A DNA stretch of 63,569 nt, counting the filler, from Actinomycetota bacterium (GTDB lineage: Bacteria; Actinomycetota; CADDZG01; JAHWKV01; JAOPZY01): the NCBI GenBank assembly GCA_025963875.1. It is 5 parts of 5 records of this genome, joined end to end, with 100 filler letters (N's around TTAATTAATTAA, not from the genome) between each part and the next. Parts side by side here need not be neighbours in the genome. Positions count along the whole stretch, not along the records: positions 40,493 to 55,105 come from JAOPZY010000025.1; 4 more parts are not named here. One strand, 5' to 3'. Shown here piece by piece: positions 45,449 to 48,515 of the stretch. Each line of letters starts with the position of its first letter. Within the stretch, counting starts at the first letter, position 1. A program made the position numbers and the translations under genes. The notes under the pieces are model-generated. The model did no database searches. It worked only from the letters and a program-made list of their open reading frames with translations, and was not told where the DNA came from.

Positions 45449-46576
45449 ATGCAAGAGATCTCCCTGGCGGAGCTGCGCCGCCGCCTCGTGTCGGCCCAGG
45501 GCTACGCTTCACGTTTCCGCCGGGGAGGACCCGCCGACGTCGTGGCCGCGGTGCAGCGCCTCGGCGCCGTACAGCTGGACTCGATCTCGACGGTCGAGCG
45601 CAGCCACCGGCTCGCCCTGTCGTCCCGGGTGGGGTGGTACCCGCCGGGGACCGTGTCGAGGCTGCTCGGGACGCAGAGGCTCTTCGAGTACTGGGCGCAC
45701 GAGGCCTGCCTGCTGCCGATCGAGGACTACCCGTGGCACCGGTGGCGGATGCGGGAGTTCCAGGGCCATGCCTGGCGGACGCGGATCCTCGAGGAGAACC
45801 CCGGCCTGGTGAAGCGTGTGCTGGAGGAGGTCCGGGATCGTGGCCCGCTCGGGTCGCGCGACTTCGACGGTGTGGGACCGGGCGGTCCGGGCGGGGGGAT
45901 GTGGAACTGGAAGCCCGCCAAGCGGGCGCTGGAGGCGCTCTTCGCAACCGGCGAACTGGCCATCGCCGGCCGGGACGGGTTCCAGCGGATCTACGCCCTG
46001 CCGGAGCAGGTGATCCCGGATGACCTCCTCGGCCGGCCCCTGCCGTCGCGCGACGAGTTCGTCCGGTGGGCCACGGTGCGGGGCGTGACCGCCCGCGGAG
46101 CGCTCACGGACAAGGCCGTGGCGGAGATGTGGCGGCTGCAGCAGGGCGTCGCCGGCGTCCGCCCGCATGCCGATGCCCTGGTGGCCGACGGCCTGCTGGA
46201 GCGGGTCGCCGTGGAAGGCGGCGGGCCGCCGGTGCTCGTCCCAGCCGGCATCGAGCCCGGCGACCCCGCTCCCCCGGTGCTGCTCTCGCCCTTCGACAAC
46301 CTGTTGTGGGACCGGCCGCTCCTGGTCCAGGCCTTCGGCTTCCGCCACGTCATCGAGGTCTACAAGCGGGAGCCCGAACGGGTCTACGGCTACTACGTCC
46401 TTCCGCTGCTGTGGCGGGACCGCTTCGCCGGCCGGGCGGACCTGAAGTACGACCGCCCGGCCGGGACGCTGCGACTCAAGCTGTTCCATCCCGAGCCGGG
46501 GATCCGGGACAGCGGGGCGCTGCGGGCGGCCCTGGAGCGGGCCCTCCTGCGGCTAGCCCCAATACCCATAAGTTAA
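45449..46576 (+). CDS. YcaQ/AlkZ-like (HTH_42) DNA crosslink-repair glycosylase; C-terminus replaced by IS sequence
   Basis: VQLDSI (QxD motif), LFEYWAHEA, LSPFD, R.YGYYVLP, GRADLK; the stop codon lies inside the IS left end. Confidence 0.9.
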   Translation: MQEISLAELRRRLVSAQGYASRFRRGGPADVVAAVQRLGAVQLDSISTVERSHRLALSSRVGWYPPGTVSRLLGTQRLFEYWAHEACLLPIEDYPWHRWRMREFQGHAWRTRILEENPGLVKRVLEEVRDRGPLGSRDFDGVGPGGPGGGMWNWKPAKRALEALFATGELAIAGRDGFQRIYALPEQVIPDDLLGRPLPSRDEFVRWATVRGVTARGALTDKAVAEMWRLQQGVAGVRPHADALVADGLLERVAVEGGGPPVLVPAGIEPGDPAPPVLLSPFDNLLWDRPLLVQAFGFRHVIEVYKREPERVYGYYVLPLLWRDRFAGRADLKYDRPAGTLRLKLFHPEPGIRDSGALRAALERALLRLAPIPIS

Positions 46577-46603
46577 GGTTACATCTGTGTTATTCTGCCG
46601 GCC

Positions 46604-48025
46604 ATGCCACGAGCCGGGTGGGTCAAGCCGAGGGATGACCAGCGGTTGTCCGACCATGTGGCGCTCGGTGTGTTGACCCGCACATTCCCATCCGAGTTGG
46701 TGGACGCGGTGGTGTCGGACACGGGCCGCCGCCAGCGGCGCTCCCGGCTGCTGCCGGCCCGGTTGGTTGCCTATTACGTCATGGCGATGGCCCTGTTCTC
46801 TTCTTCTGGTTACGAGGAGGTCATGCGAAGCCTGGTCGAGGGCTTGTCGTGGGAGTCGGGATGGCGCCAGAGCTGGAGCGTTCCCTCCCAGCCGGCGATC
46901 TCGCTGGCCCGGGCCCGGCTCGGGGAAGCCCCGCTCGCCGAGCTGTTCGCCCGGGGCTGCGTCCCGGTTGGCACCGCCTCGACGCCCGGCGCCTTCTGGC
47001 GGGGCCGGCGGCTGGTGAGCATTGACGGAACCACCCTGGACGTGGCCGACACCCCCGAGAATGCCGCCGAGTTCGGCCGGCCTGGGTCGGGCCGGGGCTC
47101 GGGGGTGGGCGCCTTCCCGCAGATCCGAATGGTGGCGCTGGCCGAGTGCGGCACTCATTGCATGTTCGAAGCGGCCATGGGCACCTACGCCATCGGGGAG
47201 GCCACCCTGGCCCGCCAGCTTGCGGACAGGCTTCGGCCGGGCATGCTCGTGTTCGCTGACCGTGGCTTCTGCGCCCACCCCCTGTTCTCGGCCTTCGCTG
47301 CCACCGGCGCCGATCTGTGCTGGCGGGCCAAGGCCAATGCGGTGCTGCCGGTGCTCGCCCGCCATCCCGACGGCTCGTACGCCTCCGAGCTGGTGGCCAG
47401 CGACGACAAGCGTGCCCGCCAGCGGGTCACCCCGGTGCGCGTCGTGGAGTACGAGATCGCCGACCCGGGACGCCCGCAGGCAGAGACCACCCGCTACCGC
47501 CTCGTCACCACCATCCTCGACCCCGACGAGGCACCCGCCGACGAGCTGGCGGCGCTGTATGCGCAGCGCTGGGAGATCGAGTCGGCCCTCGACGAGCTGA
47601 AGAGCCACCAGCGCGGACCACGCGTGGTGCTGCGCTCCAAGGCGCCGGAGGGGGTGCGCCAGGAAGTCTGGGGTTTGCTGTGCACCCACTACGCCATCCG
47701 GGCGCTCATGGCCACGGCCGCCGGCGGCGGCGGGGTCGACCCCGACCGCATCTCGTTCACGGCCACGCTGCACGCAGCCCGGCGCAGCGTCCGTGCCGGG
47801 GTCGGTACCACCACCTCCGCCCTCGCACTGGCACTGGAGGCCACCGTCGCCGAGATCTGCCGGCACCTCGTCCCAAAGCGTCGCCTGCGTGCGGCAGCCC
47901 GGGTGGTCAAGCGCAAGATGTCGAACTACAAGGTCAAGCGAGCCGAGCACCGCAGCTGGCCCCAGCCCACCCGCACCCCCTCTCAGGCGGTGCGGGTCCT
48001 GCGTCCCGGGGTTGCGCTCACATGA
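46604..48025 (+). CDS. IS4-family DDE transposase
   Basis: SIDGT, FADRGF, LYAQRWEIESALDELK (YREK signature). Confidence 0.96.
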   Translation: MPRAGWVKPRDDQRLSDHVALGVLTRTFPSELVDAVVSDTGRRQRRSRLLPARLVAYYVMAMALFSSSGYEEVMRSLVEGLSWESGWRQSWSVPSQPAISLARARLGEAPLAELFARGCVPVGTASTPGAFWRGRRLVSIDGTTLDVADTPENAAEFGRPGSGRGSGVGAFPQIRMVALAECGTHCMFEAAMGTYAIGEATLARQLADRLRPGMLVFADRGFCAHPLFSAFAATGADLCWRAKANAVLPVLARHPDGSYASELVASDDKRARQRVTPVRVVEYEIADPGRPQAETTRYRLVTTILDPDEAPADELAALYAQRWEIESALDELKSHQRGPRVVLRSKAPEGVRQEVWGLLCTHYAIRALMATAAGGGGVDPDRISFTATLHAARRSVRAGVGTTTSALALALEATVAEICRHLVPKRRLRAAARVVKRKMSNYKVKRAEHRSWPQPTRTPSQAVRVLRPGVALT

Positions 48026-48360
48026 CGACCAGTCGGCCTTCGGCCTGGGCGGTGCTGGAGCAGGCCCTCCTGCAGCGAAGGCCCGTCGCCGTCCGCTACC
48101 AGGGCAGGGAGCGCATCCTGTGCCCGCATGTCCTCGGCTACAAGAACGGACGGCCCAGGGTCCTGGCCTACCAGACTGGCGGAGCCACGAGCCAGGGTCG
48201 CCTCCCGGACGATCCCCGGCAGCGCTGGCGATCCATGTTCGTCGATGAGGTCGAAGACCCGGTGCTCAAAGATGGCCCTTGGCAGAGCGCGCCCAACTAC
48301 TCGCCCAGCACCAGCGGCATCGATGAGGTGGAGATCGCCATTGACCAGCCAGAGAATTGA
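48022..48360 (+). CDS. stand-alone WYL-like domain protein (IS passenger, 112 aa)
   Basis: ALLQRRPVAVRY..RERILCPHVLG...VLAYQ...WRSMFVDEV matches the WYL pattern; ATGA overlap with transposase stop. Confidence 0.75.
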   Translation: MTTSRPSAWAVLEQALLQRRPVAVRYQGRERILCPHVLGYKNGRPRVLAYQTGGATSQGRLPDDPRQRWRSMFVDEVEDPVLKDGPWQSAPNYSPSTSGIDEVEIAIDQPEN

Positions 48361-48466
48361 TCAACAGGCACCCTCGGAGCCATCAGAACTCTTCTCGCGG
48401 GACTATAACTTATGGGTATTGGGCCTAGACCGGCCTGATCAGGCGCTGGTCGGGGGGCTGAGAGAA

Positions 48467-48515
48467 GTAGATTCCGTCAAAAAGGGCCGCCAGCAACCCT
48501 TTTGACGGAATCTAC
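48467..48515. repeat. palindromic element, family C copy 2
   Basis: GTAGATTCCGTCAAAAAGGG-N10-CCCTTTTGACGGAATCTAC. Confidence 0.88.

Follow-up and report, generated by a model that had tools for sequence, protein, structure and literature searches.

In a 63,569-nt stretch of DNA (hereafter the window, along whose whole length positions are counted) from Actinomycetota bacterium GCA_025963875.1, an uncultured soil actinobacterium, an intact insertion sequence (IS) of the IS4 family was found to carry, besides its transposase gene, a second gene for a stand-alone WYL protein of 112 amino acids (aa). The element is 1,862 bp long (46560-48421), and the small gene, hereafter mini-WYL, starts on the stop codon of the transposase. 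The clade to which it belongs is an exchangeable accessory module of IS4, IS1634, IS701 and ISAs1 elements in soil Actinomycetota. Regarding its role, we consider it an even bet that the protein is an exchangeable, cis-made regulatory subunit that binds single-stranded nucleic acid and tunes transposition by acting on the protein encoded just upstream. The original prediction had described an IS4 element with a coupled WYL-like gene, and had read this gene either as a sensor tying transposition to single-stranded DNA (ssDNA) or damage signals, or as defence-related cargo; the observation was confirmed, and the interpretation was partly supported and widened.

The two-gene IS4 element

The first gene (46604-48025, + strand) encodes, in an uninterrupted frame, a DDE transposase of 473 aa, which scored 240 bits against the IS4-family model NF033592 (cut-off 115) and matched the Pfam domains Nterm_IS4 (PF13006, 106.7 bits, E 7.6e-31) and DDE_Tnp_1 (PF01609, 73.6 bits, E 2.4e-20). 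Its relatives are very numerous: of 8000 clusters scored, 6318 were homologous at E<=1e-20, and the best 120 were 67-93% identical to the transposase of the window. Comparison with multi-copy relatives set the true ends of the element (CAATACC...GGTATTG) at 46560 and 48421. The left terminal inverted repeat (46560-46575, + strand, CAATACCCATAAGTTA) has its reverse complement in the right one (48406-48421, - strand), and perfect pairing reaches 2 nt further out, to 46558, giving a perfect inverted repeat of 18 nt (46558-46575 and 48406-48423; two matches, with none expected from 100 shuffles). A repeat search gave arms of 23 nt with 96% complementarity. The window contains a single copy of the element.

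The mini-WYL gene occupies 48022-48360 on the + strand, where its ATG (48022-48024) overlaps the transposase TGA (48023-48025) as ATGA; its stop codon is separated from the right repeat, which starts at 48406, by a non-coding spacer of 45 nt (48361-48405). The open reading frame (ORF) listing had buried it in a 347-aa frame with a GTG start (47317-48360). Codon-position composition separates the two parts of that frame: in the 112-aa part the GC content was 0.83 at third positions (GC3) and 0.50 at second positions (GC2), values of 0.879 and 0.558 being found in the transposase, and in the upstream extension GC3 was 0.545 and GC1 0.898, indicating that the extension is non-coding in that frame. 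The reading made beforehand, of an IS4 element whose terminal repeats enclose the transposase gene and a 112-aa ORF that begins on the transposase stop, ends 45 nt before the right repeat and is hidden inside a spurious longer frame, was therefore upheld in all of these particulars.

The mini-WYL protein

The 112-aa protein passed the Pfam cut-off for WYL (PF13280, 23.8 bits against 21.8), with residues 9-78 aligned to positions 3-66 of the 70 in the profile, and matched the generic WYL model of PADLOC (E 2.5e-5) but no other PADLOC family. No match to Sm or Hfq was obtained in Pfam, and no helix-turn-helix (HTH) in either Pfam or NCBIfam, the WYL helix beginning at residue 7. No fused or longer forms of the protein were found among 197 candidates, which is weak evidence. 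Solved WYL proteins were barely detectable by sequence, the sole match of the profile in the PDB being CapW at E 0.76.

An AlphaFold2 model built from 66 homologues (predicted local distance difference test, pLDDT, 89.2; predicted template-modelling score, pTM, 0.83) placed a helix at residues 7-18, strands at 22-26, 29-41, 44-56, 69-73 and 77-82, and an extra strand at 102-106. The modelled fold is therefore an N-terminal helix and a five-strand Sm-like barrel with one added C-terminal strand, and the WCX domain is absent, the ~25-30 residues after the barrel forming this one strand. Among the rows listed from a Foldseek search, WYL proteins (DriD, CapW, BrxR and PafBC) took ranks 1-10, 15-17, 21, 23-25 and 27, with two ssDNA-bound structures, DriD (7tzv) and CapW (9c5g), among the top rows, and Sm proteins appeared from rank 28. 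Z scores from VIA-align were 10.7 for BrxR, 10.4 for DriD, 10.1 for PafBC and 9.8 for CapW, over ~85-90 aligned residues; those for Sm and Hfq chains (5.8-7.1) fell below the WYL rows. The 112-aa protein is thus a real single-domain WYL protein, with neither HTH nor WCX.

Among the homologues R31 is invariant, and C34, P35, H36, R44, Y50, Q51, R66, W69 and R70 are invariant or near-invariant, with conserved tyrosines in beta-1 (Y26) and beta-3 (Y50). PMC4012209 describes the WYL groove as lined by four basic residues and a cysteine, and groove positions of the superfamily are also described in PMC6789036; at the level of sequence, the conserved R31, C34-P35-H36, R44, Y50-Q51, R66 and W69-R70 fit this description. 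HMMER aligned the CPH motif with the SPH of Stenotrophomonas maltophilia CapW, in a weak match (E 0.76). For CapW, the contacts to ssDNA are described as S144, R164, R168 and R184.

Homologues of the protein formed 67 clusters (75-196 residues, 51-96% identity), 12 of which had a precomputed PF13280 assignment. In an alignment of 66 sequences, 8 columns were invariant and 20 near-invariant (L12, Y26, Q51, W69, R70, W87, A90, N92, the CPH motif and others). The ratio of nonsynonymous to synonymous substitution rates (dN/dS), a crude estimate taken over the whole length, variable ends included, and under a strong GC3 bias, was 0.22 in the comparison with L002, which is the closest locus (dS 1.06), and most of the closer pairs lay between 0.26 and 0.55; what is said of L002 and L060, and of L072 and L091, depends on genomes flagged as unpublished (G003 and G217). 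The motifs that the original prediction had quoted (A...RRPVAVRY, RERILCPHVLG, VLAYQ, WRSMFVDEV) were all present in the translation, and neither of the outcomes that it had named as refuting was observed: structure prediction returned a WYL fold, to go with a WYL domain without HTH, and close homologues of the transposase do carry the ORF, in conserved form. Homologous elements both with and without the passenger gene were found. Not foreseen in the prediction were the wide spread of the gene as an exchangeable module, the existence of WYL-less siblings and the predominance of IS1634 over IS4 as carrier.

A profile search of 1.84 billion representatives extended the family to 1318 proteins at E<=1e-3, 397 of them at E<=1e-10. 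The best 150 were nearly all 95-140 residues long and matched the whole profile; R31 was again invariant, and P35, H36, G39, Q51, W69, R70 and W87 were near-invariant. The wider family also keeps C34, H36, the Cys of an 'NWRC' motif (position 71) and a Cys near position 99, a set that could form a metal site; position 71 is Ser in the clade of the window, and position 99 is Gly in the window protein. High-GC DNA yields many spurious ORFs, and a frame as short as this one might be a product of chance or of decay, without function. We give this practically no credence for a protein that passes a Pfam cut-off, adopts a confident fold, shows coding-type GC3 and recurs in 67 clusters and 1318 representatives of the wider family, and whose gene retains an undamaged frame at almost every one of the 80 loci described below.

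Recurrence across insertion-sequence families

One genome per GTDB species was scanned, and of the 95 relatives found 80 loci were kept, 77 of which were from Actinomycetota (54 of these from Acidimicrobiia); the loci come from ~45 metagenome-assembled genomes. The commonest carrier was IS1634, whose transposase was the upstream partner in 46 of the 80 loci (subgroup a, n = 40; b, n = 3; c, n = 3), followed by IS4 (n = 15), a DUF6788 gene (n = 5), ISAs1 (n = 4), unclassified partners (n = 2) and IS701 (n = 1). The start of the WYL gene and the stop of the long upstream ORF overlapped by 4 nt in 47 of the 80 loci, and an in-frame NTGA start candidate was present in 67 of 79.

Several of these elements occur in multiple copies. 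One genome holds eight near-identical 2.36-kb copies of an IS1634a element and four 2.38-kb copies of an IS1634c element, making 12 WYL genes, and another has three copies of a 1.8-kb IS4-type element. In two genomes the WYL gene followed the IS1634a transposase at 8/8 and 5/5 loci, respectively. Inverted repeats also enclose the WYL gene in IS1634b and ISAs1 elements, and IS1634b elements with the same ends carry it either after the transposase (L061) or after a divergent DUF6788 gene (L059). A tree of the WYL proteins, built on 123 columns and poorly resolved in its inner order, comprised two clades with 100% support, each of which mixed transposase families: IS4, ISAs1 and IS701 in one, and the IS1634 subgroups together with the DUF6788 arrangement in the other.

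The DUF6788 gene is a third small gene of IS1634b and IS701 elements, divergent from the transposase gene and encoding a protein of ~115 aa that matches Pfam DUF6788 (L061:1842-2183, - strand, and L059:2000-2332, + strand; also in L006, L040, L045, L053, L055, L056, L063 and L067); it is absent from the element in the window. A '470-aa DUF6788 protein' upstream of the WYL gene in five loci was rejected, the long frame being the antisense of the IS1634b transposase and the real gene that of ~115 aa. The protein is Cys-rich, with invariant C37, C42, C44 and H52, and was modelled as a helix, three strands and a long helix (pLDDT 88.5), a fold to which Foldseek matched nothing in the PDB at better than E 0.33. 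DUF6788 was not found in the literature searched, and neither it nor the WYL protein had a match in PHROGs. Its gene faces the transposase gene, as that of a regulator would, and the protein may control the promoter of the transposase.

Proposed role and alternative explanations

The start codon of the WYL gene overlaps the stop codon upstream and both genes have the same orientation, making termination-reinitiation the most likely mode of translation; it would be available only to ribosomes that have just finished the transposase, and the WYL protein would be made in cis, in step with the transposase. To judge from the fold and the conserved residues, the barrel would bind single-stranded nucleic acid, with ssDNA as the favoured ligand because the WYL domains of DriD, CapW and PafBC bind it. 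Binding of ssDNA by a WYL domain that signals DNA damage is described in PMC11662680, PMC9186387, PMC10853764 and PMC11804915. Lacking both an enzymatic and a DNA-binding domain, the protein would exert its effect, in the manner of a detachable sensor subunit, on the product of the gene just upstream, which is the transposase or, in some IS1634b elements, DUF6788. Production or activity of the transposase might in this way be tuned to the ssDNA that arises from replication or DNA damage, licensing and braking being alike possible. That the gene recurs at a fixed, coupled position in four or more IS families speaks for a component operating together with the element, and against cargo, whether random or defence-related. 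A complex prediction from the transposase and WYL alignments, run without controls, scored 0.00 against a mark of 0.32 and speaks neither for nor against binding.

A more far-reaching version, which we put forward only tentatively and would not ourselves favour, is that of a portable ~110-residue WYL/Sm-like sensor, passed among at least four DDE IS families, which is made only upon completion of a transposase molecule and gates transposition by reading single-stranded nucleic acid at replication forks, at sites of damage or in the RNA of the element itself. If true, simple insertion sequences would have here their first known subunit for sensing a ligand, and this sensor might play, in Actinomycetota without Hfq, the part that the Hfq of the host plays for IS10 and IS50.

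Several findings weigh against a regulatory role in transposition. Selection on the gene appears moderate, with a median dN/dS of 0.5 over 2670 pairs, and a few close pairs have values of about 1 (L076/L077, 1.24; L058/L064, 1.15). Seven of the 80 loci have no transposase gene upstream on the same strand; one of these has an IS4 remnant, two have IS701 on the other strand, one has ISAs1 downstream and one lies at a contig edge. The C-terminal tails of the carrier transposases are wholly different between IS families, so that a single common docking site on the transposase is not obvious, and a shared tail was rejected as a candidate for such a site. There are, moreover, intact IS4 elements without the WYL gene (L081, L082, L083 and L084), which measure 1.44-1.47 kb as compared with 1.8-1.88 kb for the WYL-bearing forms and have the same type of repeats and a full transposase, 70% identical to that of the window in L081 and L082; the module is thus dispensable for transposition. 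In a transposase tree of 16 rows, WYL-less and WYL-bearing elements were interspersed, and supported branches forced at least two changes. Lastly, distant members of the family (30-35% identity) are not found in insertion sequences, none of the 22 neighbours scanned being a transposase gene, which indicates that the ancestral role was not specific to transposition and that insertion sequences acquired one clade from a broader mini-WYL family.

The two kinds of IS4 element were also sought among 401 genomes of the class, where transposases like that of the window were present in at least 9 genomes and the WYL profile in at least 5. Contigs bearing the transposase clusters fell into size groups of ~1.43-1.64 kb and ~1.8-2.1 kb, which is only suggestive. 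Regarding the distant branch, for which the metagenome search was seeded with one distant protein, one mini-WYL gene overlaps (ATGA) the stop of a gene for a 599-aa N6/N4 DNA methylase (L104:1702-3812), another lies just upstream of an OLD-type nuclease gene with AAA_15 and TOPRIM domains (L094:3468-5993), and members at 26-33% identity were located on small ColE1-like mobilizable plasmids and on Bradyrhizobium plasmids.

The dispensability shown by the WYL-less siblings, and the existence of the wider family outside insertion sequences, are both in keeping with a passenger whose host-level or defence function is unrelated to transposition, as is the case in transporter elements. Some insertion sequences do carry passenger genes, and transporter cargo is typically variable and provided with its own expression signals. 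The mini-WYL gene, however, changes neither in identity nor in its coupled 3' position across four IS families and several subgroups, it is the sole extra gene in the element of the window, and it is kept in every copy of the multi-copy elements; a mere cargo appears to us quite improbable.

The company kept by the distant members, some on small mobilizable plasmids and others next to genes for a DNA methylase and an OLD-like nuclease, could also be taken as a sign of anti-defence. A bare WYL domain, a sensor without an output domain and hence of the usual shape of a decoy, might soak up the ssDNA signal or poison the WYL regulators of the host (of PafBC type, for the damage response, or of BrxR/CapW type, for the control of defence) and so keep the breaks made by cut-and-paste transposition from setting off host responses; that such host regulators sense ssDNA is stated in PMC11804915 and PMC11662680. 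We attach little weight to this explanation, given that coupling to a transposase made at trace levels would be a poor source for a stoichiometric sponge, that the protein has no WCX or dimerisation domain with which to pair with host regulators, and that PADLOC recognised in it only a generic WYL.

The Sm-like fold suggests a further alternative, an RNA-level autoregulator similar to Hfq, in which the barrel would attach to an antisense RNA or to the transposase messenger RNA, there either in the 5' part or at the ribosome-binding site, and by repressing translation would exert a negative feedback that controls copy number. Consistent with this are the Z scores of ~6-7 for Hfq and Sm chains and of 7.8 for 6oaw, a Cas13d accessory protein that presumably binds single-stranded RNA; production in cis, coupled to translation of the transposase, would also suit a feedback regulator. 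Both IS10/Tn10 and IS50/Tn5 belong to the IS4 family, and Actinomycetota are not known to have Hfq. Repression by Hfq of the transposase expression of IS10/Tn10, IS50/Tn5 and IS200 is reported in PMC5006887, PMC4265352 and PMC4513863. On the other side, where the nearest solved relatives have a ligand it is ssDNA and not RNA, and the element has no conserved RNA structure, an Rfam scan of it having returned no conserved RNA family and only two sub-threshold matches to animal families, taken as chance. The 5' untranslated stretch between the left repeat and the transposase start measures only 28 nt (46576-46603), and the 5' regions differ among the carrier IS families, with no evident common RNA target. 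We consider this alternative unlikely, although it deserves more attention than either cargo or decoy.

Element ends, target sites and neighbouring genes

The 10-bp flanks at the position of the target duplication (CGGCTAGCCC at 46550-46559 on the left and GGCCTAGACC at 48422-48431 on the right) agree at 7 of 10 positions only. Perfect 10-bp target duplications were found in the relatives L001, L008, L027 and L028, where the duplicated targets are palindromic and GGGCTAGCCC-like, and matches of 7-8 out of 10 in L002 and L026. The stretch was found in soil metagenome runs (20 rows from 14 studies). In one of them (X1) the word depth was 82 over the element and 32-35 over its flanks, as for a multi-copy element; in another (X2), a contig identical to the left flank (46484-46559) continues past 46559 with a sequence unlike the right flank of the window. 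The window flanks may represent two different target sites, joined by rearrangement between copies, or a strain difference. A role of the WYL protein in choosing targets was rejected, since the WYL-less siblings occupy the same GGGYTARCCC-like sites. The IS1634a-type elements (L030-L038, L021-L023 and L048-L050) have CTAG at both ends (CTAGCGGGAGTTTCCGGGCTA...) and no further duplication, this CTAG being either a 4-bp target duplication or a part of the ends; the IS4-type elements are likewise centred on CTAG. A promoter scan of the element found none, and one terminator-like site was detected inside the transposase gene, against 0.7 expected.

To the left of the element lies a gene for an AlkZ-like DNA glycosylase (45449-46576, + strand; PF06224, E 2.3e-63, model positions 1-327 of 329), which ends within the left repeat, its last five residues and TAA stop (46574-46576) being encoded by the IS. 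Without the element, this frame could extend for ~25 codons into 48422-48505. On the right, ahead of a convergent gene for an ABC-transporter ATPase, a 19-nt inverted repeat at 48467-48515 (95% complementary, 11-nt loop) is probably a terminator for the flanking genes, outside the element.

Some of the IS4-type relatives with a WYL gene form a subgroup whose transposase is divided at a conserved CCGGGTTTTTCCCCCT motif (L001:3730-3995, L004:1220-1475, L008:2500-2770, L026:3740-3995, L042:3720-3985 and L009:1180-1460). The frame of the transposase body stops within 0-6 codons, L042 and L009 reading CCC TGA directly, and a basic C-terminal tail follows in the +1 frame, its stop overlapping the WYL start. 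The pattern is present in short-read and long-read assemblies alike, and resembles programmed +1 frameshifting at CCC_U. In that case, synthesis of the full-length transposase, and via the coupling also that of the WYL protein, would depend on the shift. A different variation was observed in the ISAs1 transposases that carry the WYL gene (L035:1944-3932 and L010:73-2148), whose N-terminal region matches Druantia DruA (PF14236, E 1e-20 and 2e-18, respectively) and is followed by DDE_Tnp_1_assoc and DDE_Tnp_1.

Significance

Simple insertion sequences are held to carry only what they need for movement, their control being exerted mostly through host factors, antisense RNAs and inhibitors derived from the transposase. 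The element described here adds a separate protein of ligand-sensor type, conserved, translationally tied to the transposase and swapped among IS4, IS1634, IS701 and ISAs1, which points to an undescribed control part. In its preferred role as a cis-made regulatory subunit, it would constitute a new layer of control and offer a direct handle on the old question of a possible coupling between transposition and replication or DNA damage, and of its mechanism. The results also define a large family of stand-alone mini-WYL proteins, and the coupling of other members to DNA methylases, or their position beside nucleases, indicates that the function of the module is probably general for enzymes that act on DNA. 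The WYL-bearing element and its WYL-less siblings form a natural with/without pair. The carriers abound in the Acidimicrobiia of soil, which have been little studied.

Comparison with known systems

No description of a WYL gene inside an insertion sequence was found in the literature searched, the scope of which did not extend to ISfinder or TnPedia; PMC6563490 notes the presence of a WYL protein in a casposon. The mini-WYL protein shares with the regulators of wHTH-WYL-WCX (winged HTH, WYL and WCX) architecture, such as DriD, CapW, BrxR and PafBC, the domain family, the fold and, going by sequence, conserved Tyr and Arg and a Cys/Ser-Pro-His motif. It is nevertheless not a member of that group, since it lacks both the wHTH and the WCX in a total of 112 aa, and it is encoded in an insertion sequence, coupled to a transposase, whereas it heads no defence or repair operon.

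A parallel is WYL1 of type VI-D CRISPR-Cas13d, the 6oaw structure mentioned above, which is likewise a WYL protein that is not a classical transcription factor and which, by the account attributed to Yan et al. 2018, is reportedly an accessory subunit that modulates an adjacently encoded enzyme. WYL1 differs in its ~390 residues and extra domains, in having an RNA-guided RNase as partner, and in showing no sequence match to mini-WYL.

With the classical members of the IS4 family (IS4, IS10, IS50 and IS231) the element shares the DDE_Tnp_1 domain and the IS4 N-terminal domain, short terminal repeats and, in its relatives, the 10-bp duplications, target duplications of 9-13 bp being usual in the family. 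The classical members, however, encode only a transposase, to which IS50 adds a same-frame inhibitor, whereas the element in the window has a second, coupled and conserved gene, and a palindromic, GGGCTAGCCC-like target.

Accessory genes are known from IS21 (IstB), IS66 (TnpA/TnpB), IS91 (orf121) and IS605 (TnpB), where they are inherited with the element and are family-specific. The element resembles these, and the transporter insertion sequences, in having more than one gene between its terminal repeats. It differs from the former in that the mini-WYL gene is common to IS4, IS1634, IS701 and ISAs1 and can move between the two operons of one element type; as in the transporter insertion sequences its presence is variable, yet when present it is always the same gene at the same coupled position.

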